Translations under genes and position numbers: made by a program
The notes under the pieces: model-generated
The model's database searches: none
What the model was told of the DNA's origin: nothing
What the model saw: only the letters and a program-made list of their open reading frames with translations
Shown: piece after piece, positions 39,036 to 63,338 of the stretch
Position numbering within the stretch: the stretch's first letter is position 1
How the letters are laid out: every line of letters begins with the position of its first letter
Assembly (NCBI GenBank): GCA_043800555.1
Contig: JAZDMX010000003.1
Coordinates: 33,947 to 97,946 of the forward strand
Source of the DNA: Candidatus Omnitrophota bacterium
GTDB lineage: Bacteria; Omnitrophota; Gorgyraeia; Gygaellales; Profunditerraquicolaceae
DNA length: 64,000 bases
Direction: 5' to 3'

Positions 39036-39043
39036 GAAAATGA

Positions 39044-39109
39044 GGCAATGGGGACGTTTCTACTTTCCTAATAATGGAATTCTAGAAAAGTAGAAACGTC
39101 CCCATTGCC
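39044..39109. repeat. palindromic hairpin repeat, copy A (intergenic): GGCAATGGGGACGTTTCTACTTT-loop19-AAAGTAGAAACGTCCCCATTGCC
   Basis: Perfect inverted repeat arms 39044-39066 / 39087-39109. Same core as the copies at 46.4, 57.3, 61.0, 61.7 and 63.3 kb. Followed by a CCCCATTTTTCC mini-motif. Confidence 0.85.
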
Positions 39110-39176
39110 TCCGTCCCCATTTTTCCTGATTTTTTCAGGGATTTACAGGGGCGCCCCCTTTTGTTATAATAATCCT

Positions 39177-39938
39177 ATGTTAGAAGGTAAAAAAGTCATA
39201 GTTGTAATGCCCGCTTATAATGCCGAACAAACTATAGAGCGGACTTATCTGGATATTCCCAGAGGCTTGGTAGACCAAGTGTTAGTTGTGGATGACCATA
39301 GCTGCGATAAGACCGTGGAAATCTGCAATAAACTTGGTTTGCCTGTCTTTGTACATGAGGATAATCGTGGTTATGGGGCCAATCAAAAGACCTGCTACAA
39401 AGAAGCCCTGAAAATGGGCGCAGATGTGGTTATTATGCTCCATCCGGATTATCAATATCCCCCTAAATTAATAAACGCAATGGCCAGCCTGGTGGCTTCG
39501 GGGATGTTCGATGTTGTTTTAGGCTCAAGAATACTGGGTGGCCTGGCTTTAAAAGGCGGCATGCCGCTGTATAAATATATTTCCAACAGGATCCTCACGT
39601 TTTTTGAGAATATCGTTTCAGGCGCAAAGCTTTCCGAATACCATACAGGGTATAGGGCATTTTCCCGGCAGGCCCTGCTTAGCCTGCCTTTAATGGAAAA
39701 CTCCGATGATTTCATTTTCGATAACCAGGTGCTTGCCCAGGCAATCCGCTTTGGTTACAAAATCGGCGAGTTAACGGCGCCTTCTTGCTACGCAAAAGAT
39801 TCCTCTTCTATATCCCTTAGAAGAAGCGTAGTTTATGGTTTTGGCGTTATCCTAACAACTTTGGCGTTATTTCTGGACAGGTCAAATTTAGTTAAATCCC
39901 GTTTATTCAATCCCCATGGCCGCAAGATCGAGTTATAG
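39177..39938 (+). CDS. family 2 glycosyltransferase (polyprenyl-phosphate sugar synthase, DPM1/ArnC-like)
   Basis: VIVVMPAYNAE...VVDDHSCDKT...DADV-like GADVVIMLHPD motifs, C-terminal TM anchor. A TATAAT sits 9 nt upstream of the ATG. Confidence 0.85.
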   Translation: MLEGKKVIVVMPAYNAEQTIERTYLDIPRGLVDQVLVVDDHSCDKTVEICNKLGLPVFVHEDNRGYGANQKTCYKEALKMGADVVIMLHPDYQYPPKLINAMASLVASGMFDVVLGSRILGGLALKGGMPLYKYISNRILTFFENIVSGAKLSEYHTGYRAFSRQALLSLPLMENSDDFIFDNQVLAQAIRFGYKIGELTAPSCYAKDSSSISLRRSVVYGFGVILTTLALFLDRSNLVKSRLFNPHGRKIEL

Positions 39939-41115
39939 GCTGGTTTTATTTTTAATTATCGCGGTAGCCATCACGTTGGTTTCTCTGACTTTCAAGAACA
40001 TCCATTTTGCCGCAAGCGCCGATGAAGGCTATTATTTCAGCTATGCTTCATCCATAGCGGATAGAGGGGTATCCGGATTTAGCGCGCTTTTCCAAGGTTA
40101 CCTTGAGAACCAACGGCACTGGCTTTATCCTAATCCGTTACGCGTAGGTTTCATCGGCCTATCGGCAATCTGGCTAAAAATAACCGGCGTTTCATTTATG
40201 AATATGGCCTATCTTTCTTTGGCCTTTTTTGTGCTTTTTCTGCTTACCTCTTATTATTTCTCGAGGAGATATCTAGGGGAGAAAATGGCCTTGCTTTTTG
40301 TAACGCTCCTGGCTTTTTCCCCGATTCAACTGGCTATGAGCAGGCGCGCGTTAATGGATAGCGCGGTAAATTTCTTTTCTTATTTATCAATATGGTTGTT
40401 TTGGGATTTTCTTAAGAAGAAGGGCCGGTTAAAATTAATATTTTTTATTGGCGCGTATTCATTCAGCATCCTTGTTAAGGAAACCGCGCTTCTTTTAGCC
40501 GTTTCTTTCCTGATTCTCTTACTGGTTGATAGGTTTGTTTATAAGAATAAATGCAGCCTAAAAGAATTTTCATCGGTATTATTGCTTCCGCCTTTTATCG
40601 CTTTAGCGGCGTATGCGCTATTGGGGTGTCTGCCGTATATCTTCGATACCGTTAAAATCATCTTAAATTCCCCGCAGGCTAATTCTTACGCGCTTTTATT
40701 CGGTTCAGGCCCGTGGTACCGCTATTTAATCGATTATATGGTTCTTTCGCCCTGGGTAGTCATTTTGTCTATCGGTTTTATTTTTTATTTTATCCTGGAT
40801 AAGGCAAATAATGAGCTAGCCGCATATTTTGTGGTTATATTCTTGGTCAATTTGGCCCTTTTCAATTTCTTCACCAAGAACTTGCGCTACGTGATGATCC
40901 TGGATTTGCCATTACGTTTATTCTCGCTTCTTATGCTCAATATTGTTGCCAATAAATTCTTCCCGCGCCAGGCGATCAAGATAGTTTCTGCCTTGGCAAT
41001 AGTCCTTGTTTTGTCCGATTACCTTAATTTTTATCATTTATTTGTCCAGGAAAGCATATATGACCCCGTAAGCTTTTATCTGCTTAAGGCCAGGCGCATC
41101 ATCCCTTTTAATTAA
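39916..41115 (+). CDS. polytopic membrane protein, putative GT-C glycosyltransferase (ArnT/PMT-like) partner of the GT2
   Basis: 399 aa, multiple TM segments. Overlaps the GT2 gene by 23 nt, which implies co-translation. Confidence 0.5.
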
Positions 41116-41130
41116 TAAAATATAAATAAC

Positions 41131-43923
41131 ATGCAAAGTGAATTTATCGATATTCGCGGGGCCAAGGAACATAATCTTAAAGATATAAGCCTTAAGTTGC
41201 CCCGCAATAAGCTTATAGTGGTAACCGGTTTATCCGGCTCAGGAAAATCAAGCCTTGCCTTTGATACAATTTACGCTGAGGGCCAGCGCAGGTTTGTTGA
41301 AAGCCTCTCCAGTTACGCCCGTCAATTCCTGGAACAACTTCAGAAACCGGATATAGAGTATATTTCCGGCTTATCTCCTACAATCGCCATTGAGCAGAGA
41401 TCTGCCGGCAGCAATCCCCGTTCCACTGTTGCGACGCAAACGGAGATTTACGATTATTTAAGGTTAATATTTGCGCGTATCGGAAAGATATTTTGTTATC
41501 AATGTTGCTCTCCGATAGAAAGGCAGAGCTCGCAGGAGATCATTGAAAGAATTTTGTCTCTACCCGCCGGATCCGATATTCTTGTGCTTGCCCCGCTTGT
41601 GAGAGGGAGAAAAGGCGAACATAAAGACGTGTTCAAGTTGATCCAAAAGTCGGGATTTGTCAGGGTACGCCTTGACGGTAAAATATATGAATTACCCGTA
41701 AATTCTAAGTTAGCCAAATACAAAACACATAATATAGAAGTCGTGGTTGACCGGCTCATTCTTAAAGAGGGTGTCAAAAACCGGCTGGTCGATTCGGTTG
41801 AAACAGCGCTAAAAGTCGGCAAAGGCATTGTGATAATAAACGCTAAAGAGGACATTGTTTTTAGCGAGCAATATGCCTGTTCTAAATGCGGGATAAACTA
41901 CGCGGAGGTTGAGCCGCGTATTTTTTCGTTCAATTCTCCTTACGGCGCTTGCCTGGAATGCAATGGTTTGGGAACGAAGATTAAATTTGATCCCGATCTG
42001 GTCGTGCCTGACCGGAGTAAATCCATAAATGCAGGGGCTATTGGCCCGTGGAAAAGAGGGGGCAGGGGGTATATACTTTATTATCGTTGGCTTATCCGGC
42101 AGTTGGCAAGAGAATTGCGTTTTGATTTAGATGCGCCGTTTAATAAGCTATCCAAAGAAAGCCAGCGCGCGATACTTTATGGATCGGAAGAAATCATCGG
42201 CAGCAAGCCCTATGAAGGAGTAATCCCGCATCTAGAAAGGCTCTTTCGGGAATCCGATAGCGATTATCTGAAGGAAGAGATATCCAGGTTTATGTTAAGC
42301 TCGGCTTGTCCGGCCTGTAGGGGCGCCCGCCTTAAAAAAGAGAGCTTGGCAGTCAGGATCAATAAAAAGAATATTTGGGAAATCACGCAGATGTCTATTA
42401 AAGAAGCGTATAATTTCTTTAGTAACCTGGAATTGGGCCAAAAAGATAAACTGATCGGGCATCAGGCCTTAAAAGAAATAATCCAGAAATTAAGGTTCTG
42501 TATTGACGTGGGGCTGGATTACCTTACCTTGGACAGAAAGAGCGCGACTTTATCAGGAGGAGAAGCGCAAAGGATCCGCCTGGCCACCCAGGTTGGCTCG
42601 GGTTTAGTCGGAGTTTTATATGTGTTGGATGAGCCCAGTATCGGGCTTCATCAGCGCGATAATAATAAGCTGCTGGATACCCTTAAGTCACTGAGGGATT
42701 TGGGCAATACCTTGCTTGTAGTCGAGCATGATGAGTCAACTATACTTAGCGCGGATTACATCGTGGATTTGGGCCCCGGGGCCGGCCGGGCCGGAGGGGA
42801 AGTGGTCTTCTCCGGCACAAAAGATGAGCTAATGGAAGATAAAAAATCTTTGACTGCTAAATACTTGAGGCGGGAATTAAAAATTGATTTACCCAAGCTA
42901 AGGAGAAGCTGGAAAGGCAAAAGGTTTTTGGAGGTAATAGGCGCCCGGGAGCATAACCTTAAAAATATCGATGTGAAATTTCCTTTAGGCACTTTTATCG
43001 GAGTTACCGGCGTATCGGGTTCGGGAAAGTCCACTCTTATCGACGATATATTGTTCAGGGCCCTGGCCCGGAAACTTTATAAGTCAAAAGAAAAACCCGG
43101 GTTATTCAGAAAAATCGCAGGGATCGAATATATCGATAAAGTAATCGTTGTTGATCAGTCTCCGATAGGCAGGACCCCGCGTTCAAACCCGGCTACTTAC
43201 ACAGGAGTTTTTAGCTATATCCGCGATATTTTCAGCCAGCTTCCTGAGTCCAAAGTCCGCGGCTACAGGCCCGGCAGGTTTTCTTTTAACGTTAAGGGCG
43301 GCCGCTGCGAGGCGTGCATGGGCGACGGGATAAAAAAGATTGAAATGCATTTTTTGCCCGATGTATACGTCAAATGCGATATATGCAAAGGCTTGAGGTT
43401 TAACGAAGCGACCTTGGCCGTAAAATATAAAGGCAAGTCTATCGCTGGCGTATTGGGGATGACCGTAGAGGAAGCCCTCGGCGTATTCAATAATATACCC
43501 AAAATACATAATACGCTTTCTTATTTATATGATGTTGGTTTGGGCTACATCCAGCTGGGGCAAGCCGCAACCACTTTATCCGGGGGAGAGGCGCAGAGGA
43601 TTAAGCTCTCCAGCGAGTTAAGCAAGCGCTCTACCGGAAGCACGCTCTATATCCTTGATGAACCGACTACGGGCCTGCACTTTGCCGATGTAGCCAAGCT
43701 GATCGGTGTTTTACAGAAACTGGTAGATAAAGGCAATACCGTTATTGTCATCGAGCATAATTTAGAGGTGATTAAGAGCGCGGATTACATTATTGACCTG
43801 GGCCCTGAAGGCGGAGATAAGGGGGGAGAGCTTGTTGTGCAGGGTAGCCCGGAAGAATTGGTTAAGAACAAGGAATCGCACACAGCGAAGTTTCTTAAGC
43901 AGGCGTTAGATAATAATGTTTAA
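41131..43923 (+). CDS. uvrA: excinuclease ABC subunit A
   Basis: 930 aa. Two ABC modules ([12 protein letters not shown]..., [10 protein letters not shown]...), LSGGEAQRI signatures, zinc-finger Cys clusters. Confidence 0.97.
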
Positions 43924-46366
43924 GCCTAAATCCCCCAGATCCAAATCCGAATTAATCCTTGATTACCCACTCCCTGGGTGGAATCTTAGAATACGGAGTT
44001 TATTCGTAGCCGGGATTTTGTCATTGGTTATTGTAGCGCAGTTAGCCTTTGGAAATTTTATTTTTTCTTCTTTTGCCGATGCGCCTGCCAGGGAAGAAGA
44101 GGCTTTGTTCCTGGCCCAAAAAGCGTATGAAGACGGTTATTATGATGTCAGCCTGGGGTTATTAGAGCGTTTCTTGAGGGATTATCCGGATTCTTCCAGG
44201 ACAATCGAAGCAAACCTGTTGATCGGAGAGTGTTTTTTTTACCAGAATAAGCTTAAGCCTGCCTTGGCAAAATTCGATGAACTGTTAAAATCCCCCGCGG
44301 CCAAACCTATAAAAGACGCTCTTTATTATTGGATTGCCGAGATCAATTTCAAGGTGAATAATTATGGCGCGGCGATTCCCTATTATGAAAAAGTAATTAA
44401 GGAATTTCCCGGTTCTTCTTATGTCCCGATAGCGTATTATTCTTTAGGGTGGTGTTTGTTCCAGGAGGGAAGATTCGAAGAGGCTTTGCATTATTTTACG
44501 TCTTTAAGCAGGGAATACCCCGAAAACCCCCAAAGTAAAGACGCGGCATTTAAGATTATAGAGTGTTTATATAACCTTAAGGATTATCATGGCCTAAAAG
44601 ATAAAACCGATTTGGCAATCAGGGAGTTTTCCCAGGATCCCCTTAAGGCGCCTTACCTTTATTTTTATTTGGGCGAAGCTAACTATTATTTGGGGAATTT
44701 TACCGCTTCGGTTGAGGCGTATTCCAAGGGGCTGGATGCTAACCCCGATAATAAAATACAGGCTTTGACCAGGCTTGATTTGGGTTGGGCATATCTTAAG
44801 CTGAAGCGCTATAAGGACGCCGAAGATGTTTTTGCGGGGTTAAAGCGGGAGGACTTGGAAAAACGCAACCTGGAGGTTTTATTGTTAGGCAGGGCTACCC
44901 TTTTAATGGAAACCAACCGCATAAATCAGGCAAAAAAGACATATGAGGAATTATCGAATTTGACCAGCGACCCTTTAATCGCCCTTCAGGGGCTCATGGG
45001 TAAGGCGGATGCTCTGTATGGCCTGGCGGATTACCCGGAGGCCTCAAAAGTTTTTCGCGAAGCTCTGACGAAAATCGATCCTAAGGATAAAGCCAGCGCT
45101 CAAATCGCGGATAAGCTACGCTACAGTTTGGGTAAGTCATTATTGAATGAGGGCAGGATTAAAGAGGCCATTGATGAATTCCGTAAGGTTGTTGATTCCG
45201 GGAGCGACGATATGTTCAAGATCAATGCCCTTTGCCAGATAGGGGACGCCTATCAGGATGAAGCAAATTATAAGAAAGCGCAAGAAACATACGATTTCTT
45301 CCTAAAGCGCTACCCGGATTCTTCCTGCAGCGATTATGCCCTATACCAGCTAGGTTCGGTTTATTTAAAAGACTCCCGGATCGAAGAAGCGATTTTAAGC
45401 CTCGAGGCGTTCGAAAAGAGGTTCCCTGCATCTAATTTCCTTGATGATGCCGCTTATACCCTTGGCTTAGCTTATTTTAATAAACGGGATTATACTTCGG
45501 CTGAACATGAGCTTAAGAGGTTCCAGGCTGGCCTTAGCTCAAGCGATACAAGGCCTAAAGCGCTTTACCTTTTGGGGAATTGTTTTTATAATTCGGGGGA
45601 TTATGCTTCAGCCCTACAGGTTTTTAAAGAAATTCCCCGCTCCGGGTGCGGGACGCTTGATGCCGGATTGCTCCAAAAGGCTGAATACGGGCAAGCGGAT
45701 TCTCTTTACCAGATGGGCAAGGAAGAGGAGGCTTTAGCAAGGTTTAAGGCATTGCGTTCAAAATACCCTGATTCAAGTTTTACTCCTGACATTATCTGGT
45801 GGCTGGGGATTTATTATTACCGGCATAAAGAACCTGATTTGGCAGGTCGCTATTTTTTGTCTATTATACAGGATTTTCCCAAGAGCGGCTTATTGCCCGA
45901 TGCTTATTATGCCCTGGGCCTTACTTATATAGATAAGGACAAGAATAAAGAGGCTTTGGATTATCTTGAGAAAGCCCTTAGTTTTAATAAGGCGGATGTA
46001 AATCCCAAGGCAGCCGTTGCTTTAGCCGAATTATTTTCCAAGTCAGGCGATTATGACAATGCTTTGCTTTATTACCGTAGCAGCATAAATGGAGCGCCTT
46101 TAGAAGATTTACCGGCCTTGCATTTTAAAATAGCTGAAATTGAAGAGGCTAAAGGCAATCTTGATGAAGCGGAAAAGGAATACTTCCAAGCAACTAAGTT
46201 ATCGGGCAAGGCCGATGCTTTTACCGTAAAGGCGCTTTTCAGGCTGGGCAGGGCCTATGAAGATAAAGGTAATTATCAGGAGGCTATAAAGGCTTATACC
46301 ATTATATTGAACATGAATTTGCCTGAATCTAAATATGCCGCAGAAAGGATTAATCAGCTTAAGTAA
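43916..46366 (+). CDS. large tetratricopeptide-repeat protein with N-terminal signal/TM anchor
   Basis: 816 aa. N-terminal hydrophobic helix, then about 15 or more TPR-like repeats (AxxYxxGxxyy... periodicity throughout). Confidence 0.7.
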   Translation: MFKPKSPRSKSELILDYPLPGWNLRIRSLFVAGILSLVIVAQLAFGNFIFSSFADAPAREEEALFLAQKAYEDGYYDVSLGLLERFLRDYPDSSRTIEANLLIGECFFYQNKLKPALAKFDELLKSPAAKPIKDALYYWIAEINFKVNNYGAAIPYYEKVIKEFPGSSYVPIAYYSLGWCLFQEGRFEEALHYFTSLSREYPENPQSKDAAFKIIECLYNLKDYHGLKDKTDLAIREFSQDPLKAPYLYFYLGEANYYLGNFTASVEAYSKGLDANPDNKIQALTRLDLGWAYLKLKRYKDAEDVFAGLKREDLEKRNLEVLLLGRATLLMETNRINQAKKTYEELSNLTSDPLIALQGLMGKADALYGLADYPEASKVFREALTKIDPKDKASAQIADKLRYSLGKSLLNEGRIKEAIDEFRKVVDSGSDDMFKINALCQIGDAYQDEANYKKAQETYDFFLKRYPDSSCSDYALYQLGSVYLKDSRIEEAILSLEAFEKRFPASNFLDDAAYTLGLAYFNKRDYTSAEHELKRFQAGLSSSDTRPKALYLLGNCFYNSGDYASALQVFKEIPRSGCGTLDAGLLQKAEYGQADSLYQMGKEEEALARFKALRSKYPDSSFTPDIIWWLGIYYYRHKEPDLAGRYFLSIIQDFPKSGLLPDAYYALGLTYIDKDKNKEALDYLEKALSFNKADVNPKAAVALAELFSKSGDYDNALLYYRSSINGAPLEDLPALHFKIAEIEEAKGNLDEAEKEYFQATKLSGKADAFTVKALFRLGRAYEDKGNYQEAIKAYTIILNMNLPESKYAAERINQLK

Positions 46367-46438
46367 GCCTTCAATAACGGTTATTTGATCTATTCTTTGC
46401 CCGAAATCCGCTATTTTAACGGGGCAGTTCCGGAAAAC

Positions 46439-46544
46439 GGGGATGGGAAAAATGGGGACGTTTCTACTTTTCAAGAAATAAGCTCGGAAAAGTAGAAACG
46501 TCCCCAATTTTTCCCCCCATTTTTCCCATCCCCATTTTTCCCTG
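46439..46544. repeat. palindromic hairpin repeat, copy B (intergenic), with extended/tandemly reiterated CCCCATTTTTCC outer arms
   Basis: Core GGGGACGTTTCTACTTTT 46454-46471, 16-nt loop, AAAAGTAGAAACGTCCCC 46488-46505. Left flank GGGGATGGGAAAAATGGGG is mirrored on the right by CCCCAATTTTTCC-CCCCATTTTTCC-CATCCCCATTTTTCCC. Confidence 0.85.
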
Positions 46545-46655
46545 TTTTTTTCAAGAGGAATCTTTTGCAGGCATTCTTTAAAACCAGAAATAGGGCGTTT
46601 CTATCCTGGTAAGCATGAGGCATTTTTCTTGCCAGCCCGGATTCGTAAATAGTAG

Positions 46656-46683
46656 TTGACAAAGAACGCAGCTATTATAAAAT
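46656..46683 (+). promoter_or_regulatory. putative sigma70 promoter TTGACA-N16-TAAAAT upstream of the type IV pilus module
   Basis: Consensus -35 TTGACA at 46656-46661 and TAAAAT at 46678-46683. 18 nt upstream of the wHTH gene start at 46702, whose SD is GGAGGA. Confidence 0.4.
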
Positions 46684-46701
46684 AAAATCCTGGAGGAAAA
46701 A

Positions 46702-46908
46702 ATGATTACAGAAATCGGAATAGTTGCCGGTGAAATATGGCATTTTTTGGATCAACGCTCAGAGGTTAGCTTGACTGAATTGGTTAAGGATATAGATAAA
46801 TCCCGGGATAATGTCCTTATGAGCCTTGGCTGGCTGGCTAGAGAAGGCCATGTGCTTCTGCGGCAAACCGGAAATGATTACAGAGTCTCTTTAAGGAAAG
46901 ATGCCTAG
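46702..46908 (+). CDS. small winged-helix DNA-binding-like protein (DUF2582-like), first gene of pilus module
   Basis: 68 aa. ...LTELVKDIDKSRDNVLMSLGWLAREGHVLL... HTH-wing pattern. SD GGAGGA 7 nt upstream. Confidence 0.45.
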   Translation: MITEIGIVAGEIWHFLDQRSEVSLTELVKDIDKSRDNVLMSLGWLAREGHVLLRQTGNDYRVSLRKDA

Positions 46909-47320: not shown

Positions 47321-47532
47321 GTAAATAGCCGCATTTCCTCGATTAACTTCCGGTAAGTATATAATAGTCTAAGTAAATAGCATCTTGATAGCAGCAGCAA
47401 ATTAAGGGGCTGTTGCTCTTGTTTTATCTTATCATAAGTAAGTATAAGTAAGTATAGATAAGAAAACACTTGACAATATGAATGTTTTATGTTTTAATTA
47501 AGTCCATTATTGAATATTATGAAATACAGTGA

Positions 47533-49295: not shown

Positions 49296-49296
49296 G

Positions 49297-49821: not shown

Positions 49822-49824
49822 AAA

Positions 49825-55460: not shown

Positions 55461-55506
55461 TCCAGTAAACTTACGTGACGGAGTTATAGCAGCGAACGCA
55501 AAATAT

Positions 55507-55890
55507 ATGGCTAAAACAAACAAGAAAAACGCGTTTACTCTACTAGAGCTGCTTATTGTAATAACTTTAGTTGGTATTTTGGCTGTTATAGTTATGACTA
55601 GGTACGGGGCAGTCGCGGAAAACGCCCGCTCGGCGGAAGCATACGCTGTTTTAGCTGAGGTCGCTGCTTCGGAAAGCGGCTATTACGTGGAAAATAACGC
55701 GTATACAACTACCTGGTCGAATTTAGACAGGTATGCTGCTGCTCCCCCAAGCGATAATTTTACCTATACCCTTAATTCCGGTTATTACGGTAAGGCCGCG
55801 CCAAAATCAGGGCGGGGGACGAAGACCTATTATATGTGTTTTGACGGAACGAACAAAGGGACAGCTATCCCATCGTGTTCGACTCCTTAA
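55507..55890 (+). CDS. type IV prepilin (KKNA|FTLLELLIVITLVGILA)
   Basis: Prepilin N-terminus with Glu+5. 127 aa, C-terminal Cys pair (YYMCFDGTNKGTAIPSC). Confidence 0.8.
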   Translation: MAKTNKKNAFTLLELLIVITLVGILAVIVMTRYGAVAENARSAEAYAVLAEVAASESGYYVENNAYTTTWSNLDRYAAAPPSDNFTYTLNSGYYGKAAPKSGRGTKTYYMCFDGTNKGTAIPSCSTP

Positions 55891-55891
55891 G

Positions 55892-56350
55892 ATGAATAAG
55901 AAAATCCCGCTAGAGAAAAGTATTGGTGAAAAAGGCTTTTCTCTGGCGGGATTTACTTTATTGGAATTGCTTCTGGTGGTTACGGTTATAGTGATCCTAG
56001 CCTTAATAGCCATTCCCGGATACAATAAGTCTAAGAACAGGGCAATAGGCAAGGAAGCTGTTGCCAATCTCAAGCTTATAGCCGCGGCAGAGCGGATATA
56101 TAAGATGGAGAATGATTCCTATATTACATGCGTATGCACAAATTCTACTACTTGCGCAGCGTCTACCGGATGTAATTCCCGCCTTAGGCTGATGTTGAAT
56201 ACGTCAAACTGGCAATATGGAGTGACCGGTTCTGCCACAGCCGTTACCGTTACGGCTACTTACAAGTTAAATAGCAGTTGCAAGTATAATATTTACAGCT
56301 CAAACTTCGATTTAGACCCTGTAAAATCAGGCGCAGCAAGTTGCCCTTAG
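55892..56350 (+). CDS. type IV prepilin (SLAG|FTLLELLLVVTVIVILA)
   Basis: Prepilin N-terminus with Glu+5. 152 aa, several Cys. Confidence 0.8.
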   Translation: MNKKIPLEKSIGEKGFSLAGFTLLELLLVVTVIVILALIAIPGYNKSKNRAIGKEAVANLKLIAAAERIYKMENDSYITCVCTNSTTCAASTGCNSRLRLMLNTSNWQYGVTGSATAVTVTATYKLNSSCKYNIYSSNFDLDPVKSGAASCP

Positions 56351-56354
56351 GCGG

Positions 56355-56732
56355 ATGATGAATAAAAAAGCCCTAAGCCTGCTGGAAATAATTATTTCTA
56401 TGGTGATATTAGCTATGGTCATTGCCGGCGTAGCTAGTGTTTTTGTGGCGGGTAAGAGGTTTATACTGCATAACCGCTCCCGGATGGCCGGAAGCGAGTT
56501 AGGCAAGGTATTCCTGGATCCTCTGCAGGCTTATATCAGGCAGGACACCTGGGCCGGAAGTAATTGTTTTAATACCAATAATGCCAGTAACCCCGCTAGT
56601 ATGGCTAGTTGCCCTTCAGTCCCTGTAACTTATACCATCGGTTTTTTGACTTATACCCCTCAATATTACATTAGTAATATTAATACCAATATTAAGAAAG
56701 TGAAAATGGTGGTGAGCTGGCCTTCTGAATAA
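56355..56732 (+). CDS. minor (pseudo)pilin, prepilin-like N-terminus (KKA|LSLLEIIISMVILAMVIAG)
   Basis: Glu+5 retained, non-canonical Ala-1/Leu+1. 125 aa. Confidence 0.65.
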   Translation: MMNKKALSLLEIIISMVILAMVIAGVASVFVAGKRFILHNRSRMAGSELGKVFLDPLQAYIRQDTWAGSNCFNTNNASNPASMASCPSVPVTYTIGFLTYTPQYYISNINTNIKKVKMVVSWPSE

Positions 56733-57340
56733 TGCGCGTTGACCTTCGTCAATCCTTAACCCTGGTGGAGTTATTAATCGCCATATCGTTATTGGCGGTA
56801 ATGATCTTGGGTGTTAGTAACATCGATGTTTTCAGCCGGTATCATCTTATTACCACTGACCACCGGGCCAAGCTGCAAAATGATGTTTCGCTTTGCCTTG
56901 AACATATGACTAAGAAGTTGTCTGGCGCCATAGGCAATGAAACGCTTTATGGGGCGAATTCCGCGGTATTCATCAGCCCGAATTCTACAAACACCGCTGT
57001 TTTATCGGTATTAGCGGACGCAAACGGCAGCGGCCAGAGGGAGCTTATCGGAGGGGATTATTGGATTGGGTATAATTTTGACTCTAGCGCAAAACAGTTT
57101 AGATATTGCGGTCAATGCACCAGCTCCTTATGTTCTTCATGTTCTGTGGCGCAAGAGGTCCTAGCCAGGAACATAACCGCATTTTCAGCCTCTAAAGATT
57201 TTTCCCGGGGAAACTATATAAACGTTACTCTTACCGCTTGCAGCGATCCTACGGGGGCAACTGCTTCCTGCGGATCTTCTAATAACCCCGCAGTTACTAT
57301 GTCCACCAGTATTACCTTGCCCGCAGTTGCCGCTAACTAG
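56732..57340 (+). CDS. minor (pseudo)pilin, prepilin-like N-terminus (RQS|LTLVELLIAISLLAVMILG)
   Basis: Glu+5 retained. 202 aa. Last gene of the pilin block. Confidence 0.65.
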   Translation: MRVDLRQSLTLVELLIAISLLAVMILGVSNIDVFSRYHLITTDHRAKLQNDVSLCLEHMTKKLSGAIGNETLYGANSAVFISPNSTNTAVLSVLADANGSGQRELIGGDYWIGYNFDSSAKQFRYCGQCTSSLCSSCSVAQEVLARNITAFSASKDFSRGNYINVTLTACSDPTGATASCGSSNNPAVTMSTSITLPAVAAN

Positions 57341-57343
57341 AGT

Positions 57344-57413
57344 GGGAAAATGGGGACGTTTCTACTTTTCCGGCAGCTAAACTCAGGAAAAGTAGAAACG
57401 TCCCCATTTTCAT
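57344..57413. repeat. palindromic hairpin repeat, copy C (intergenic, between pilin block and tRNA-Ala)
   Basis: GAAAATGGGGACGTTTCTACTTTT 57344-57369, 18-nt loop, AAAAGTAGAAACGTCCCCATTTTC 57388-57413. Perfect 24-nt arms. Confidence 0.85.
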
Positions 57414-57429
57414 GATATAATAAAAATAC

Positions 57430-57502
57430 GGGCCTGTAGCTCAGCTGGGAGAGCGCCTCGTTCGCAACGAGGAGGTCAGCGGTTCGATCCCGCTCAGGTC
57501 CA
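57430..57502 (+). tRNA. tRNA-Ala (anticodon CGC)
   Basis: 73-nt cloverleaf. Acceptor GGGCCUG/CAGGUCC with the G3:U70 Ala identity pair, D-arm GCTCAGCTGGGAGAGC, anticodon stem CCTCG/CGAGG with loop TTCGCAA, T-arm GGTTCGATCC. No encoded CCA. Confidence 0.9.
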
Positions 57503-57609
57503 TAAATAATTTTTCCTGAATTTTCCGGGATACTCAAGCCAACCTAGTCAGGCGGCAGGCTAAGCAATCCCTAAGCCGTTTCCCCGGCAAAAATCCAAGG
57601 CAGTGCGGC

Positions 57610-58833
57610 ATGAAGAATATTGGCGAATTAATTTTAAGCGTAGTTTTCCTTGTTGCTCTGATTTTGTTTTGTGTTTTCCTGCCCGGTTTGTTTGATTCTC
57701 AACAATTAACCCGTTTGATGCATTCCGGTTTAAAGCCCGGGGTTTGCCCTGTCCGGGATGCGGTATTCCCCTTGGACCCTTTGAATGGCCCGGGATCGAG
57801 CTCTTTGTTAGAAGCCGGTGAAGTGTTGAAAGAGGCGTCTTTTTATCAGAAATTGGAAAAAAACGCCGTCCAATGCCGGCTTTGCCCCCGCCGCTGCGTG
57901 ATCCCGGATGGCTTACGGGGCTATTGCGGCGCGCGCCAAAACCGTAACGGAGTATTGTATACTTTGGTTTATGCTAAGCCCGTGGCAATACATATTGACC
58001 CTATAGAGAAGAAGCCTTTGTTCCATTTCTTGCCGGCTACAACCGTTTATTCGGTAGCTACCGCCGGATGCAACTTAAAATGTAAATTCTGCCAGAACTG
58101 GGAGATATCCCAGAGTAAGCCCGAAGACCTCGAGTATGTTTATCTTGAACCTAAAGATTTAGTAAGAAAGGCCAAGGAGTCAGGCTCGCCGGCAATAGCC
58201 TATACTTATAACGAGCCGACTGTATTCTATGAATATATGCTTGAGACTGCAAGGCTCGCCCGCCAGGAAGGCTTAAAGAACGTTATGCATTCTAACGGCT
58301 ATATAAACGAAGAGCCGCTTAGGGCTTTGGCTAAATTCCTTGACGCGGCTAACATTGACCTTAAGGGTTTTAGCGACGATTATTACGCTAAAATTGCCGA
58401 GGGCTCGCTCGGCCCGGTTTTAAATTCCTTAAAAATATTAAAAGAAGAAGGCGTGCATATAGAGATAACCACCTTGCTCCTTTCGGGTTTTAATGACGAT
58501 GCGCAGGGCCTAAGGAAGCTGTGCCTGTGGATTAAGGAAAATTTGGGGGCGGATACCCCTTTGCATTTCTCGAGGTTTTTCCCGATGTATAAACTAATGA
58601 GCCTTGCGCCGACTCCCGTAGAATCGCTTGAAAAGGCCAGGGAGATCGCTATTGATTGCGGATTACGTTATGTCTATATCGGAAATGTCCCGGCTAACCC
58701 GGCAGAAAATACCTATTGCCCTAAATGCAAAAAGCTTATTATTGAACGAAGAGGTTTTTTTGTCGTCCAGAATAACCTGGAAGACGGCAAATGCAAGTTC
58801 TGCGGCGAGAAAATCGCAGGAGTGTGGAAATGA
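57610..58833 (+). CDS. AmmeMemoRadiSam system radical SAM enzyme
   Basis: CRLCPRRC N-terminal Cys motif, and CNLKCKFC radical-SAM CxxxCxxC. The family-typical start aligns near 57823 (GTG/TTG, ...KEASFYQKLEKNAVQC). The ORF as drawn adds an about 70-aa N-terminal extension with a predicted TM helix. Confidence 0.85.
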   Translation: MKNIGELILSVVFLVALILFCVFLPGLFDSQQLTRLMHSGLKPGVCPVRDAVFPLDPLNGPGSSSLLEAGEVLKEASFYQKLEKNAVQCRLCPRRCVIPDGLRGYCGARQNRNGVLYTLVYAKPVAIHIDPIEKKPLFHFLPATTVYSVATAGCNLKCKFCQNWEISQSKPEDLEYVYLEPKDLVRKAKESGSPAIAYTYNEPTVFYEYMLETARLARQEGLKNVMHSNGYINEEPLRALAKFLDAANIDLKGFSDDYYAKIAEGSLGPVLNSLKILKEEGVHIEITTLLLSGFNDDAQGLRKLCLWIKENLGADTPLHFSRFFPMYKLMSLAPTPVESLEKAREIAIDCGLRYVYIGNVPANPAENTYCPKCKKLIIERRGFFVVQNNLEDGKCKFCGEKIAGVWK

Positions 58834-60470
58834 CAATAAAAAGGGATTGTCGCCATAGGCTGCTCCGGAAGCCGGGTAGCTTCCTGTTGCTTCGGCATTG
58901 TTTTGCCCTGTTTCGCAGGCGCCTTGTATTTTTGGCAACTACTGGTTTCTTAGTTTCTGTTTTGAGTTTTGGCGTTTGCCATTCGTTATATGCCGGAGGC
59001 ATAAAAGAGCCTTGCGTTGCCGGGACATTTTATCCCGAAGACCCCGGAGAGCTTTCTAAGATGATTGACGCATTCTTGGAAGAAGCAAATCCTGAAACGG
59101 GGCCGGTTGGCCGGGTTTTCGCCTTAATTTCTCCTCATGCCGGTTACGGCTATTCGGGTAAAGTCGCGGGGTTCGGCTACAAGCTTATCAAGGCCAAAGA
59201 GTATAAAACGGTGGTAATTTTAGGTACGAGCCATCACTATGCCTTTAGCGGAATTTCGGTTTATCCCGGCGGCGTATTCAAAACTCCGCTTGGAGGAATT
59301 CCGGTAGATGATGAATTTACCCAAAAATTGCTCAATAAAGGCCCGGCTGTAACATTCGTCCCGGAGGCCTTTCAAGAAGAGCATAGCGTTGAAGTGCAGC
59401 TGCCGTTTTTACAAAAGACGCTGGATAATTTCAAGATTGTCCCGGTAGTCATTGGCGACGTTTCTTTATCTACCTGCCAGAAGTTTGCCGCTTTGCTTAA
59501 GGAATCAATTAATACGCGTAATGATGTTTTGTTGGTTGTTTCTACCGATATGTACCACGGATATGATTATGAGGAGGCGGATAAAACCGATAACCTTACC
59601 TTGGCCGCTATAAAGAACATGGACGCGCAAGCCCTTTATTACGGGATTCGTGATGAGAAAATGCAGCTTTGCGGAGGTTTCGGGGTTGTAACCGCCCTTA
59701 TTTTAGCCAAAAGCATGGGCTATGATAAAGCGGTATTATTAAAACATACAAACTCTGCGGAAGTTACCAATAATATGAAAAAAGGTATCTGGACCGTAGG
59801 TTATTCAAGCTGGGCTATTGGCGCTTCTATGGGATCCAGCGTCAATGGCGGGCAGAGTCGAACCAGTGGCGCTTCTTTAGGGCCCAGCGCCAATCCGGGA
59901 GGAGAAGCCATGTTTAATAAAGGTCAGAGGAAGCGGTTGCTTGAGATTGCGCGCGCTGCTATAGAGGCATATTTAAAGAATGGCAAGGTTTTAGAGATTA
60001 CCGAGACGGACCCTGCTTTGGCAAAGACTACAGGAGCTTTTGTTACCCTTAATGAACACGGGGATTTGCGCGGTTGTATAGGAAGCCTCCTGGGGACAGA
60101 ACCGTTGTATTTAACCGTGCGGGATATGGCGGTTGAGGCTGCTACGGGCGATTCCCGCTTTAACCCGGTAAAGCTGCCGGATTTAAAGAATATTGAGATT
60201 GAAGTATCCGTTTTATCTCCTATGCAGAAAATCGACGATCCTGGCCTGATTAAGCTTGGGGTCCACGGTGTTTTAGTGCGGCAAGGCTACAAGAGCGGGG
60301 TATTCCTTCCCCAAGTAGCTACGGAAACAGGATGGTCAAAAGATGATTTTATGTCGAATTTGTGCGTCCATAAAGCGGGCCTTGCCCCCGATGCCTGGAA
60401 AGATAGATCTACCGAAATTTATATTTTTACGGCGGAAGTGTTTTCCGAGAAAGAGATGAGCGGTGGTTAA
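58830..60470 (+). CDS. fused AmmeMemoRadiSam system protein B (MEMO1 family) + protein A (AMMECR1 domain), with N-terminal Arg-rich/hydrophobic extension
   Basis: ATGA overlap with the radical SAM gene. N-terminal half has MEMO1 motifs (VAGTFYPEDP...ISPHAGYGYSG...ILGTSHH...DMYHGYD). C-terminal about 190 aa is AMMECR1 (GAFVTLNEHGDLRGCIGS...GVLVRQGYKSGVFLPQVA). The first about 50 aa (RRRLVFLATTGFLVSVLSFGVCHSLYA) look like a signal peptide or membrane anchor. Confidence 0.85.
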   Translation: MTIKRDCRHRLLRKPGSFLLLRHCFALFRRRLVFLATTGFLVSVLSFGVCHSLYAGGIKEPCVAGTFYPEDPGELSKMIDAFLEEANPETGPVGRVFALISPHAGYGYSGKVAGFGYKLIKAKEYKTVVILGTSHHYAFSGISVYPGGVFKTPLGGIPVDDEFTQKLLNKGPAVTFVPEAFQEEHSVEVQLPFLQKTLDNFKIVPVVIGDVSLSTCQKFAALLKESINTRNDVLLVVSTDMYHGYDYEEADKTDNLTLAAIKNMDAQALYYGIRDEKMQLCGGFGVVTALILAKSMGYDKAVLLKHTNSAEVTNNMKKGIWTVGYSSWAIGASMGSSVNGGQSRTSGASLGPSANPGGEAMFNKGQRKRLLEIARAAIEAYLKNGKVLEITETDPALAKTTGAFVTLNEHGDLRGCIGSLLGTEPLYLTVRDMAVEAATGDSRFNPVKLPDLKNIEIEVSVLSPMQKIDDPGLIKLGVHGVLVRQGYKSGVFLPQVATETGWSKDDFMSNLCVHKAGLAPDAWKDRSTEIYIFTAEVFSEKEMSGG

Positions 60471-61179
60471 AATAGTTGCGAGCAGCTTTATTTTGGGGCT
60501 TGCGCTCGGCAGTGGGCCGTGCTTAGCTAGTTGCGGCCCGCTGTTTTTGACTTATATAGCCGGTTCCGGCAAGGGAGTTTTAAAAAGCCTGGAGTCTTAC
60601 TTTTTATTTTCAGCGTCGCGGATATTCGTTTACTTGATTTTAGGCTTATTATGCTTTTTTTTCGGCAGGTTAATCTTTGTGAGATTAGGGGATATTTTCA
60701 AGTTTATTTTGTTTGGCGCGGGCCTCTTTGTTGTTTCCCTTGGCATACTTATGGTTTTGGGTAAGGGAGTAAATTCGGCCCATTGCTCTTTTTTGCGGGA
60801 ACGTATTCTTGAAAAAGACAGTAAAGGCGTAGTCATCCTTGGGTTATTTGCTGGGCTATTGCCCTGCGCGCCTCTAATAGCTATGTTCACCTTTACGGGG
60901 TTAACCGCTAAAAGCGCCTTCGAGAATTTATTGTATTCTTTTGCATTCGGTTTAGGGACAGCTATTTCTCCGCTTATAGTTTTAGCCGGGCTGGCAGGCT
61001 TACTCCCCGCGCTCTTCAGGAAAAAGGGGGACGTTTCAAAAAAGGGGGACGTTTCTACTTTTCCCAATACTAGCTATAGAAAAGTAGAAACGTCCCCCTT
61101 TTTCTTGAGGCTGTTCCATATTATTTGCGGTTTGATTATGGTATTCTTAGGGATTCAGCTAATTCGGAGAATATTTTAA
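60463..61179 (+). CDS. integral membrane protein with paired TM cysteine motifs (GSGPCLASCGP ... LLPCAPL; CcdA/DsbD-like thiol-disulfide or metal transporter family?) carrying an in-frame repeat insertion
   Basis: 6-7 predicted TM helices. Residues about 186-214 (RKKGDVSKKGDVSTFPNTSYRKVETSPFF) are encoded by repeat copy D. The hydrophobic reading frame resumes after it (LRLFHIICGLIMVFLGIQLI). Confidence 0.5.
   Translation: MVKIVASSFILGLALGSGPCLASCGPLFLTYIAGSGKGVLKSLESYFLFSASRIFVYLILGLLCFFFGRLIFVRLGDIFKFILFGAGLFVVSLGILMVLGKGVNSAHCSFLRERILEKDSKGVVILGLFAGLLPCAPLIAMFTFTGLTAKSAFENLLYSFAFGLGTAISPLIVLAGLAGLLPALFRKKGDVSKKGDVSTFPNTSYRKVETSPFFLRLFHIICGLIMVFLGIQLIRRIF
61021..61103. repeat. palindromic hairpin repeat, copy D (inside CDS, in-frame), with an extra 5' partial arm duplication
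   Basis: AAAAAGGGGGACGTTTC (partial) then AAAAAAGGGGGACGTTTCTACTTTT, 17-nt loop, AAAAGTAGAAACGTCCCCCTTTTTC. Belongs to the five-G / AAAAAG-flank subtype. Confidence 0.85.
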
Positions 61180-62001
61180 ATGAATAAATTTTTCTGTAAG
61201 GATTCGGATATGCAGGAGGACAAAATCAACATTTCAAATAAGGAGGATGTCCACCATATAAAGAATGTCCTTAGGCTAAAGCAGGGCGGAAAGGTTGAAG
61301 TCTCTGATGAATCGGGCAATGTTTATGCCTGCGAAATCTTCCGGATAGACGATAACGTCCATTTGGTTGTTAAGAATAAAATTTGCTCTACCGGTATAGA
61401 CCGGGGGATAGAATTAACTGTGGCAGTCGCTATCCCCAAGAAGGCCAAGATAGACGATATCATAGATAAGCTGGTCCAATTGGGGGTGCGCAGGGTTATC
61501 CCTTTGAAAACGGAACGCGTGATAGTGAAACTGGATAAGCAAAAGGAAGCCGACCGTTTTCTGCGCTGGAAGAAGATTGCGCTTTGCGCGGCTAAGCAGT
61601 GCAAAAGGAGCGATTTAGCTGTTATTGAGCCGGTTAGGAGCTTTAAGGACGTTGTCGCGGATTCAAGCAGGTTTGATTTAAAGCTTATTCCGTATTTGGG
61701 AGGGGAACGGAGAACTCTTAGGGATGTTTTAGCAAAGGGGGACGTTTCTACTTTTCTTGAGCCTGGTGCCAGAAAAGTAGAAACGACCCCCTTTGCTTTG
61801 AAAAGTAGAAACGTCCCCCTTTTTTCTAAAGTAATGGTTTTAATCGGGCCGGAAGGCGATTTTTCCGAAGAAGAGGTTCAGTTGGCTTTATCCGCGGGGT
61901 TTATCCCGGTTACGCTGGGAAGTTTAGTTTTACGCGTGGATACCGCTGCTATTGCCGTAGCCGGTTTCATCAGGCTGTTTTTAGGTCAGGAGCGGTTTTA
62001 A
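61180..62001 (+). CDS. rsmE: 16S rRNA (uracil1498-N3)-methyltransferase RsmE, carrying an about 30-aa in-frame repeat insertion
   Basis: PUA-like N-terminus and SPOUT C-terminal domain (VLIGPEGDFSEEEV...LGSLVLRVDTAAIAVAG). The segment KGDVSTFLEPGARKVETTPFALKSRNVPLFS is encoded by repeat copy E, between conserved blocks. Confidence 0.8.
   Translation: MNKFFCKDSDMQEDKINISNKEDVHHIKNVLRLKQGGKVEVSDESGNVYACEIFRIDDNVHLVVKNKICSTGIDRGIELTVAVAIPKKAKIDDIIDKLVQLGVRRVIPLKTERVIVKLDKQKEADRFLRWKKIALCAAKQCKRSDLAVIEPVRSFKDVVADSSRFDLKLIPYLGGERRTLRDVLAKGDVSTFLEPGARKVETTPFALKSRNVPLFSKVMVLIGPEGDFSEEEVQLALSAGFIPVTLGSLVLRVDTAAIAVAGFIRLFLGQERF
61731..61826. repeat. palindromic hairpin repeat, copy E (inside rsmE, in-frame): one left arm plus two right arms
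   Basis: GCAAAGGGGGACGTTTCTACTTTT, loop, AAAAGTAGAAACGACCCCCTTTGC (one mismatch, flank-complementary), then a second right arm AAAAGTAGAAACGTCCCCCTTTTTT. Confidence 0.85.
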
Positions 62002-62056
62002 ATTCCGGCTGGCTAATGGTTGGCCTTAGCCGTTATCCGGGAGTTCTTGCGATCTT

Positions 62057-63301
62057 ATGAAGATAAAATTTTATACCCTTGGCTGCAAAGTAAACCAATA
62101 TGATACCCAGAGTATCCGGGAGCGTTTTCTGGCGCATGGGTTCAAGGAGGCGCGCGGGCCAGGCAAAAGCGATTGTTATCTTATAAATACTTGCACCGTT
62201 ACGGCTATGGCCGACCAGAAATCCCGCAGGCTGATCCGGCATTGTATCAGCGAAAACCCGCAGGCCAAAGTAATAGTAACCGGTTGCATGGTTAAGAATG
62301 ATTCCGGAGAGTTAGCCGGAATTCGCGGCGTGAGCCTGATTATCAGTAAAAGTTTTTTTAGCGAAGGGATAAGCGATTTTTCTTCGCATACCCGGGCGTT
62401 TTTAAAGATTCAGGATGGTTGCGATAATTTTTGCTCCTATTGCAAGGTGCCTTTGGCGCGCGGCAGGTCAAGAAGCAGGCCCTTAACGGATGTAATTAAA
62501 GAAGCCCGGGCCCTAGCCGAAAAAGGCTTCAAGGAAATAGTCTTAACCGGTATATGCCTGGGTTCTTACGGCAAGGATCTCGGAAAAGGCATAGGGCTGG
62601 CAATGGTTATCGAAGAGATGGAGAAGATAGAAGGGTTATCGCGTATCCGTTTGAGTTCTATCGAGGCCGGCGATATTACCGAGCCATTGATCGATAAGAT
62701 GTCTAAATCCAAGAAGCTTTGCCGGCATTTGCATATTCCTCTCCAAAGCGGGGATGATGATATCTTAAAGAAGATGCGGCGTAAGTATTCGCGTAAATTT
62801 TATCTTGATCTTATTAAGAGGATAAAAGCCAAGATCCCGCAAATAGCCATTACTACTGATTGCCTTGTCGGCTTCCCGGGGGAGAAAGAAAGAAATTTCA
62901 GGAATACCCTGGATTTAATCAATAGTATCCTGCCTTTAAGGGCGCACATTTTTCCTTATTCTCCCAGAAAGGGAACAAGCGCTTATCTAAAGGCGGTTCA
63001 TCTTGGTTTTTCATCGCCCGAGCTTGTTAGAAGGCGTGTCGCTGTCCTTAAATCCGCGGCCAGCCTGTGTTCCGATAAGTATAAAAAGCGCTTCTTAGGC
63101 CGCACAATGCTTGTTCTTTTTGAAGGTAAATCCAGGGCAATGAGGGGGTGCTGGGAGGGTTATACTGATAATTATATTAAGGTTATTTTCAGGTCCCGGC
63201 GTAATTTAAAGAACAGGCTGGTATATGTCAAGCTTAAGGGTATTTTTGGCGATGCCGTATTGGCTTCCCGGAAAAAGGGGGACGTTTCTACTTTTTTCTA
63301 G
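62057..63301 (+). CDS. mtaB: tRNA (t6A37) methylthiotransferase MtaB (MiaB/RimO radical-SAM methylthiotransferase family)
   Basis: MTTase N-domain YTLGCKVNQYDT...INTCTVT, radical SAM CxxxCxxC in DGCDNFCSYCKVP, C-terminal TRAM domain. The last 9 codons (KKGDVSTFF) and the TAG stop come from repeat copy F. Confidence 0.85.
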   Translation: MKIKFYTLGCKVNQYDTQSIRERFLAHGFKEARGPGKSDCYLINTCTVTAMADQKSRRLIRHCISENPQAKVIVTGCMVKNDSGELAGIRGVSLIISKSFFSEGISDFSSHTRAFLKIQDGCDNFCSYCKVPLARGRSRSRPLTDVIKEARALAEKGFKEIVLTGICLGSYGKDLGKGIGLAMVIEEMEKIEGLSRIRLSSIEAGDITEPLIDKMSKSKKLCRHLHIPLQSGDDDILKKMRRKYSRKFYLDLIKRIKAKIPQIAITTDCLVGFPGEKERNFRNTLDLINSILPLRAHIFPYSPRKGTSAYLKAVHLGFSSPELVRRRVAVLKSAASLCSDKYKKRFLGRTMLVLFEGKSRAMRGCWEGYTDNYIKVIFRSRRNLKNRLVYVKLKGIFGDAVLASRKKGDVSTFF

Positions 63302-63338
63302 GCTTAGCGCCGGAAAAGTAGAAACGTCCCCCTTTTTC
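63271..63338. repeat. palindromic hairpin repeat, copy F (forms the 3' end and stop codon of mtaB)
   Basis: GAAAAAGGGGGACGTTTCTACTTTT 63271-63295, 18-nt loop containing TAG, AAAAGTAGAAACGTCCCCCTTTTTC 63314-63338. Confidence 0.85.

Follow-up and report, generated by a model that had tools for sequence, protein, structure and literature searches.

The 64-kb stretch of Omnitrophota DNA analyzed here (the window; window counts below refer to the whole stretch) carries six copies of one palindromic hairpin element, two lying inside protein-coding genes and one overlapping the end of a third. Probably these elements are non-autonomous hairpins of the repetitive extragenic palindrome (REP)/REPIN or TIRtron type, mobilized in trans by a Y1 HUH transposase, and they look like a further instance of an already known kind of selfish DNA, not like a new kind. 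A sequence-only reading of the same DNA had described them as one family of inserted, selfish-looking palindromes that are tolerated in-frame, and had likened them to the Rickettsia palindromic elements (RPEs). The first part of that description is borne out below by orthologous genes that lack the inserts. The likeness to RPEs is an analogy only, the closest documented kind being REP/REPIN or terminal inverted repeats (TIRs) with Y1 transposases of the REP-associated tyrosine transposase (RAYT) or TIRYT class.

With up to two mismatches allowed, the core arm ACGTTTCTACTTTT has 14 matches in the window, where 0.67 are expected, and none of 100 shuffled sequences reaches 14. Thirteen of the matches are paired and fall in the six elements between 39 and 63.4 kb, all of which direct reading and an inverted-repeat scan recovered at the positions first reported. 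The first 39 kb contain ordinary genes and spacers and, as had been claimed, no copy: the sole match there is an isolated two-mismatch hit at 3460, and neither the arm search nor the inverted-repeat scan found anything comparable. The arms follow the pattern GAAAAWGGGG(G)ACGTTTCTACTTTT, i.e., GAAAAW-GGGG(G)ACGTTTCTAC-TTTTC, with the consensus GAAAAWGGGGACGTTTCTACTTTT and a module of about 18 nt, AAAGTAGAAAYGTCCCC. They are 25-29 nt long and 96-100% complementary (80% over 41 nt in the nested copy B), and the distance between them is 12-18 nt. Folded as single strands, the six copies have predicted energies of -44.7 to -62.5 kcal/mol (z = -7.5 to -11.7 against shuffled sequences), and within a single arm only the GAAAA and TTTTC feet pair weakly. 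The division into two subfamilies also stands, copies A-C having (A)ATGGGG and copies D-F AAAGGGGG. The copies and their accessory pieces are the following:

39042-39111: copy A; 29-nt arms, GAGGCAATGGGGACGTTTCTACTTTCCTA and its reverse complement, 12-nt loop; -47 kcal/mol, z -11.7; intergenic, between Asp-dehydrogenase-like and GT2 glycosyltransferase genes (Pfam)
39112-39126: extra right-arm terminus CGTCCCCATTTTTCC, directly after copy A
46432-46527, up to 46544 with all outer arm sequence: copy B, nested; core hairpin at 46448-46511 with 25-nt arms and a 14-nt loop, -62.5 kcal/mol; imperfect outer arms GGAAAACGGGGATGGGAAAAATGGGG... and ...CCCCAATTTTTCCCCCCATTTTTCCCATCCCCATTTTTCCC; intergenic, 3' of the TPR gene at 43916-46366
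57346-57411: copy C; 26-nt perfect arms, 14-nt loop; between the stop of the pilin-like gene at 56732-57340 and tRNA-Ala
57430-57502, + strand: tRNA-Ala(CGC), right neighbor of copy C
61020-61037: truncated left arm GAAAAAGGGGGACGTTTC, directly before copy D
61039-61103: copy D; 25-nt perfect arms, 15-nt loop; inside the DsbD_2 open reading frame (ORF)
61731-61797: inner hairpin of copy E; 27-nt arms, 96% complementary, 13-nt loop; inside RsmE
61800-61826: second, outer right arm of copy E, GAAAAGTAGAAACGTCCCCCTTTTTTC; in another frame, read as ..KSRNVPLF..
63271-63338: copy F; 25-nt perfect arms, 18-nt loop; overlapping the 3' end of the MtaB-like ORF

The accessory pieces (the truncated arm before D, the second arm after E, the terminus after A and the outer arms around B) had been described only in part. 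The terminus after copy A looks like the footprint of a second or nested element. Copies A, B and C lie between genes, at a short distance behind a + strand gene in each case, and with F included four of the six copies lie just 3' of ORFs. The loops had been called variable. Their sequences do diverge, but they are not unrelated: those of C, E and F, of the metagenome contig L010 and of two copies in the Omnitrophota genome GCA_030650425.1 (L025) share a diverged consensus of about CCGGCRYTAGACTCAAG, in either orientation.

Two side observations concern the same region. TAGAAA in the right arm of copy C and a TG-extended TATAAT that follows 17 nt further on (57393-57421) jointly match a sigma-70-like promoter at 10 of 12 positions. 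This match ends 9 nt before tRNA-Ala, and copy C may have donated its -35 box. In the pilin-like gene cluster there is an unrelated hairpin with a 19-bp stem, AAATCCCGCTAGAGAAAAG-15-CTTTTCTCTGGCGGGATTT (55902-55954), present once in the window.

The copies that touch genes are found in three genes in a row:

60463-61179, + strand: host gene of copy D, DsbD_2 family membrane protein (PF13386)
61180-62001, + strand: host gene of copy E, RsmE 16S rRNA methyltransferase (PF04452 and PUA_4), 100% identical to NCBI MFH0855048.1 from a Candidatus Omnitrophota metagenome-assembled genome (MAG)
62057-63301, + strand: host gene of copy F, MtaB-like radical-SAM methylthiotransferase (UPF0004 and Radical_SAM)

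Copies D and E are both translated as ..KGDVSTF..RKVET(S/T)P.. in-frame with their genes, and the conserved sequence downstream stays in frame. D together with its truncated arm reads ..RKKGDVSKKGDVSTFPNTSYRKVETSPFF.., E reads ..AKGDVSTFLEPGARKVETTPFA.., and the predicted insert-encoded peptides include GDVSTFLEPGAR. Copy F supplies the last 10 codons of the MtaB-like ORF (RKKGDVSTFF) and its TAG stop at 63299-63301. All three had been taken as embedded in ORFs, which is true of D and E but not of the C-terminal F. At about 70% identity, orthologs of all three proteins are without the inserts. The nearest RsmE orthologs (243-244 aa, 68-70% identity) lack the 29-residue segment. Among the other loci compared (L026, L027 and the Omnitrophota loci L025, L031 and L032), the DsbD_2 orthologs of L026 and L027 lack the D segment and are 22-23 aa shorter there, and the MtaB proteins of L027, L025 and L031 end in ..AA without the RKKGDVSTFF tail. 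In the AlphaFold (AF2) model of the window RsmE (mean pLDDT 81.5) insert residues 194-211 have pLDDT values below 50 and are modeled as coil between H190-193 and E217-222 of the SPOUT fold, i.e., as a disordered surface loop. Taken together, the orthologs without these segments and the modeled coil argue that the three genic copies are tolerated insertions at a loop or a protein end and not ancestral sequence. The sequence-only reading had named ancestral RsmE and MtaB segments as the finding that would count against it. In part this applies: close orthologs lack the inserts, but palindromes do occur in the RsmE loop of other orthologs. Of about 92 parsed, 56 have a minimal loop, and in some 14 the loop contains a translated palindrome, e.g., DGSIANGHKNRTVP. 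The codon at which the palindrome is placed varies slightly, which points to the RsmE loop as a recurrent landing site; it is a recurrent hot spot or an old insert that turns over, not the place of a unique recent hit. In one ortholog (P0092, 280 aa) the same loop contains the insert ..RESGDLKKMDSRFHGNDV.., which appears to belong to a further palindromic repeat family and resembles the peptide strings that arise when a repeat element is translated.

A bias of the genic copies towards one reading frame, which had been proposed as well, is not demonstrable, as one of the three right-arm frames is always closed by TAG, copy D has one of six frames open, and only three to four independent genic sites bear on the question. 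Nor was a clean empty site with a target duplication obtained: the DsbD_2 junctions are too diverged to be placed, and at RsmE the two close relatives L031 and L032 differ by a replacement of 63 nt with 27 nt, not by a precise insertion. Copies C and F are not flanked by any visible direct target-site duplication.

The same element and variants of it are found in other genomes. Metagenome contigs were searched with the 18-nt arm alone, in an unbiased 18-mer scan. L010 contains the window element almost exactly, including its GAAAATGGGG foot, along with a truncated left arm that ends after GTTTC, the same point at which the truncated arm before copy D ends. Element variants were also seen in L014, L006, L012 and L015, and variant families comprise GGGGACGGTTCTAT.. 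in L025 and L031 and GGGGACGGTTCTCT in L010. In L025 the hairpin AAAAAAGGGGACGGTTCTATTTTT-loop-AAAAATAGAACCGTCCCC occurs twice, one copy being in the same RsmE loop, where L031 has GGGGACGGTTCTATT-15-AATAGAACCGTCCCC and L027 yet another hairpin. A second L025 family, GGGGACACTTTCC.., has three copies, of which one is nested inside a third variant just after MtaB, the position of copy F in the window. Across 12 aligned hairpins, three of the 19 stem pairs have changed on both sides with pairing kept, i.e., the arm changes of the variant families are compensatory. Different hairpin families thus repeatedly occupy the same RsmE loop across Omnitrophota.

Several further observations were made at these loci. 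At 12030-12150 of L025 a GGGGACACTTTCC.. element lies inside the loop of a GGGACCGTTTCTATTTT / AAAATAGAAACGGTCCC element, an arrangement that suggests insertion into hairpin loops, as do the layered feet of copy B. The MtaB ortholog of L027 (4655-4760) has a 34-residue N-terminal extension (..INPSTTLRVNSEPFDYAQD..) overlapping the palindrome CCATTAACCCT-12-AGGGTTAATAG at 4662-4695, and this extension may be either a further hairpin family read in-frame or a mis-called start. In four Omnitrophota loci another hairpin, AAAAGAGGAGAG..loop..CTCTCCTCTTTTTT, is conserved in position, downstream of the pilin gene that comes after MtaB (window 63953-63989; L025 12753-12787; L031 12597-12631; L032 12558-12596). 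It looks like a genuine position-conserved intrinsic terminator, unlike the mobile hairpins.

Other searches delimit the distribution of the family. An exact 18-mer scan of the GTDB species representatives gave only five single-arm loci, two of which are an ISNCY insertion sequence considered below. In the viral contigs scanned only single arms were present, at chance level, and there was no sign of a phage vector. A 31-position profile of the encoded peptide, run against 1.84 billion representatives, matched a single spurious repetitive protein (P0181) and no further in-frame copies, and a profile of the 53-aa tandem peptide gave zero word-sharing candidates for other in-frame copies. In an Rfam search of the window, tRNA was the sole family matched, the hairpins being without a match. 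In the literature searched there was no report of such elements in Omnitrophota.

The link to a transposase comes from the loci in which the arm, or the end of it, flanks a Y1 gene. The arm search returned among its matches the contig L012, where a Y1_Tnp homolog (IS200-like; tblastn and Pfam) is bracketed by two palindromes without loops. The upstream one (975-1012, read up to a run of N) has the exact arm of the window and lies about 90 nt before the gene; the downstream one (1683-1725) has two mismatches per half and overlaps the Y1 stop. The homologs of this protein are named "transposase" in Pseudomonadota or Deltaproteobacteria MAGs. Five more members of the same Y1 clade (L028, L029, L030, L033 and L034) are each flanked by inverted repeats, located about 150 nt upstream and 40-70 nt downstream of the Y1 gene, and L028 has an additional dispersed inverted pair 10 kb away. 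The outer end of the repeats is GGGGACGTT in all six clade members examined, L012 included. In the Omnitrophota genomes L025 and L031 a related Y1_Tnp gene, flanked by GGGGACGCTCCCC.. and ..GGGGAGCGTCCCC, directly follows the pilin cluster; in L031 it directly precedes tRNA-Ala, and the slot is syntenic with that of copy C in the window. Flanking inverted repeats were present at all eight Y1 loci examined. They start with GGGGACGT or GGGGACGC and match GGGGWSAS at six to seven of eight positions, and in L028, L029, L033, L034, L025 and L031 the flanking units are small hairpins themselves, e.g., GGGGA-CGTT-TCCCC. The Y1 proteins are short (196-217 aa; Pfam Y1_Tnp match 2.8e-17), and all six aligned proteins contain the HuH motif, (T/N)H(F/L)HLL, and the Y motif RYIE(L/R)NP. 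The Y motif of class-2 (TnpA-REP) enzymes is YI..NP (Table 1 in PMC6006769). The best NCBIfam model for the proteins is NF047646, "REP-associated tyrosine transposase," at 47-74 bits.

L032, which is about 97% identical to L031, has neither the Y1 gene nor the RsmE hairpin. As a side observation, only three segments are replaced between these two relatives over 20 kb at this identity, namely the Y1 gene with its inverted repeats, the spacer after tRNA-Ala and the RsmE hairpin (replaced segments include L031 5961-6725 versus L032 6567-6641 and L031 6801-6867 versus L032 6717-6867); the L032 spacer after tRNA-Ala contains other small hairpins. A Memo/AMMECR1 fusion gene is next to or near the Y1 gene in L033 (6982-9082; an unrelated contig with 57% GC), L025 (6501-9962) and L031 (6077-9356), a shared neighborhood that may be a coincidence.

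From these loci we infer the following course of events. A class-2 Y1 (HUH) tyrosine transposase of the RAYT/TIRYT kind, encoded outside the window or since lost, would copy or move the elements in trans. As single-stranded DNA or RNA the element would form a very stable hairpin, and the enzyme would recognize its GGGGACGTT...AACGTCCCC ends as such a hairpin in single-stranded DNA. The extra arms of copy D and of L010, both truncated after GTTTC, give a hint that cleavage would take place near TTC|TAC. Most copies would land just 3' of genes, where the G/C-rich foot of the stem and the T4-6 behind it could make them terminators or stabilizers of mRNA ends, a plausible side role at gene ends. 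Copies arriving in ORFs would survive only in a stop-free frame and in a dispensable surface loop or protein end, adding some 10-30 residues (..KGDVSTF..RKVETSP..).

Several points weigh against mobilization by a Y1 enzyme. No Y1 gene was found in the 64-kb window by tblastn. L012 and its Y1 relatives are not Omnitrophota (GC 42-57%), and GGGGACG is all that the Y1-flanking repeats of L025 and L031 have in common with the dispersed hairpins of these loci. All the Y1 proteins score below the 80-bit cut-off of NF047646, and Pfam did not see a C-terminal helix-turn-helix (HTH) in the L025 protein, the sole one scanned. A canonical REP is a strong small palindrome, which the single arm here is not. 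Divergence is far greater in the loops than in the arms, a pattern that simple copy-and-decay does not explain; near-invariant arms around strongly diverged loops call for selection or conversion acting on the arms. Finally, the same motif forms the subterminal repeats of an ISNCY insertion sequence with a DDE transposase.

This last point supports a different, though in our judgment unlikely, origin of the hairpins as miniature inverted-repeat transposable elements (MITEs) of a DDE-type insertion sequence, ISNCY or a family with similar ends, whose transposase would bind the 18-nt motif. Two loci of the Anaerolineales MAG JAYVUA01, L001 and L002, contain a 1.4-kb element with two tandem copies of the motif CAAAGTAGAAATGTC(A/C)CC at either end; its boundaries are defined by comparison of the two loci. 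Its 454-aa product is a transposase of the ISNCY family (NF033594, 480 bits; cut-off 250), and an inverted exact copy of the window 18-mer adjoins the left end of the element. The polarity is reversed, however: the insertion sequence has GGGG inward and a GTTAGCC tip, whereas the window hairpins have GGGG at the outermost position and are without a GTTAGCC tip. No ISNCY homolog is present in the window or in any Omnitrophota locus examined, the absence of visible target-site duplications around C and F also speaks against a DDE enzyme, and in Omnitrophota it is Y1 genes, not DDE genes, that adjoin hairpins. Regarding the insertion sequence itself, it is multi-copy (L001 3880-3976, L002 1817-3224), with ends made of GTTAGCC and the two tandem CAAAGTAGAAATGTC(A/C)CC motifs. 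The same 15 nt, GAAATATTTAATTCT, are found at its left end in L001 and at its right end in L002 and may be a long target duplication, and the repeats code for the C-terminal end of the transposase (..KSRNVPAASPGDISTL..).

It is quite improbable that the hairpins are non-mobile host elements such as bidirectional terminators, mRNA-stabilizing stems or protein-binding sites. Such a role would suit their very stable folding, the location of four of the six copies immediately 3' of + strand genes and the stem foot GGGG(G)ACG/CGTCCCC(C), which in B-F is followed by T4-6 and mirrored by A-runs on the other side; a position close behind ORFs is also typical of REPs in general, to which a function as RNA elements is ascribed (PMC3733652). 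Two copies, however, are inside conserved ORFs, where a terminator would do harm, and the orthologous positions in relatives are empty or occupied by a different hairpin family. The true position-conserved terminator-like hairpin nearby (63953-63989) looks quite different. A terminator scan did not flag the copies, which is due to its loop limit of 3-8 nt.

That all six copies lie within 25 kb, with none in the preceding 39 kb and the D-F subfamily confined to three adjacent genes within 2.3 kb, could be read as local duplication or gene conversion, but this is very improbable, and the sequence-only reading was right to prefer a dispersed family: the flanks of the copies are unrelated genes, the same element is present on L010, and variants are found in L025, L031, L014, L006, L012 and L015. 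Least credible of all is that the elements are true RPE homologs, for although they are palindromic, tolerated in-frame in ORFs and end their arms in CGTCCCC, while RPE-4 and RPE-6 are classed as CGTC-tagged REPs (PMC3733652), the host phylum is a different one, CGTC REPs combine stems of 8-9 bp and loops of 4-5 nt with an unpaired CGTC tag and a CCA tail where here CGTC is inside a 25-bp stem, and they are reported without an associated transposase (PMC3733652) whereas the motif here flanks Y1 genes.

Two other candidates were rejected. A CRISPR-like, attC-like or guide-RNA nature was dismissed, there being no array, integrase or cas genes and the loops being diverged copies of one sequence. 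A host-derived loop, with arms inserted around target DNA, was considered when the loop of copy F could be aligned to the empty-site sequence in L027 and L031; it was discarded because the F loop matches, in reverse orientation, the element loops at other loci.

Mobilization in trans by a Y1 transposase would extend the association of REP/REPIN- or TIRtron-type repeats with Y1 enzymes to Omnitrophota, an uncultivated phylum. The window supplies clean examples of in-frame survival in housekeeping proteins (RsmE, DsbD-like and MtaB), with the RsmE loop as a hot spot throughout the phylum. For annotation this means that, where Omnitrophota proteins show strings such as ..KGDVSTF..RKVETSP.. or ..DGSIANGHKNRTVP.., these are to be read as translated palindromes and not as functional motifs, and that they inflate the apparent divergence of proteins; the hairpins are in addition useful strain markers and possible assembly break points. 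A more speculative idea, and a rather doubtful one, is that the arm of about 18 nt is a recognition module shared across phyla and transposase classes. The motif is found with Y1 genes on proteobacteria-like contigs, as dispersed hairpins in Omnitrophota and on contigs with 64% GC, as ISNCY subterminal repeats in Chloroflexota, and in the form of different hairpin families that recur in the RsmE loop across Omnitrophota. If true, either REP-Y1 systems spread horizontally or two unrelated transposases have converged on, or exchanged, one end sequence, and this would contradict the view of REPIN-RAYT pairs as strictly vertical, lineage-private partners.

Among the known systems, REPINs are described in the abstracts on REP/REPIN-RAYT systems as non-autonomous elements exploiting a RAYT. 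The Omnitrophota elements share with these systems (Nunvar 2010; Bertels & Rainey 2011, PMC3116915; PMC3337134) the short hairpin-forming palindromes located mostly just 3' of genes, the Y1 gene between inverted repeat copies (in L012 with this very arm, in five further members with the GGGGACGTT core) and a Y1 gene that keeps its syntenic slot in two Omnitrophota lineages, which is what vertical inheritance of a RAYT would predict. GTAG is present in the arms, and a larger hairpin arises from two inverted units. By the published definition (PMC3733652) they differ in that GTAG and CGTC (AAAAGTAGAAACGTCCCC) lie inside the paired 25-bp stem and not in an unpaired terminal tag, and the arm does not have the form of a small imperfect palindrome preceded by an unpaired 5' GTAG. 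The associated proteins score under the NCBIfam RAYT cut-off, and the exact arm is also found outside the phylum, whereas the inheritance of REPIN-RAYT pairs is described as strictly vertical.

Bacterial MITEs (Correia/NEMIS, RUP, ERIC) are similar in having inverted-repeat ends and no coding capacity and in that they may act on the side as terminators or promoters; the ends of the L002 ISNCY insertion sequence contain the same 18-nt motif. What sets the window elements apart is the missing target-site duplication around C and F, a motif polarity opposite to that of the insertion-sequence ends and the lack of a parent DDE element in the Omnitrophota loci. RPEs and other intragenic REPs (Opitutus terrae, Thauera, Xanthomonas recB; PMC3733652) likewise sit in-frame in housekeeping genes and add 20-30 residues, and related species have been reported to carry different REPs at nearly the same place in a given gene (PMC3733652), which parallels the RsmE loop. 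In-frame intragenic REPs are known from several phyla, being most abundant in Opitutus terrae and Rickettsia conorii (PMC3733652), and the earlier statement that such tolerance is uncommon outside Rickettsia was overstated. RPEs differ in sequence family, size and host phylum (Rickettsiales versus Omnitrophota) and are without a known transposase, and the described architecture of the CGTC-1 and CGTC-4 REPs (RPE-6 and RPE-4) is distinct.

TIRtrons are RAYT-like genes flanked by TIRs that share GGGGWSAS, and some TIR families are dispersed as dimers; REPs, too, are mostly found just 3' of ORFs (PMC3733652). The window arm GGGGACGT fits GGGGWSAS at only six of eight positions. TIRYT transposases of subclass 2.1 are long proteins with a C-terminal HTH (Quentin et al., 2018, PMC6006769), unlike the short Y1 proteins described here (196-217 aa), for which Pfam gave Y1_Tnp alone and no HTH in the L025 protein. 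Nevertheless, the anatomy and associations of the elements seem to fit the TIRtron variant especially well: similarly to TIRtrons (Di Nocera et al., 2013, PMC3733652), the Y1 loci have terminal inverted repeats that start with GGGG and lie at similar distances from a RAYT-like Y1 gene, and the second, dispersed family of L025, GGGGACAC.., fits GGGGWSAS at all eight positions.

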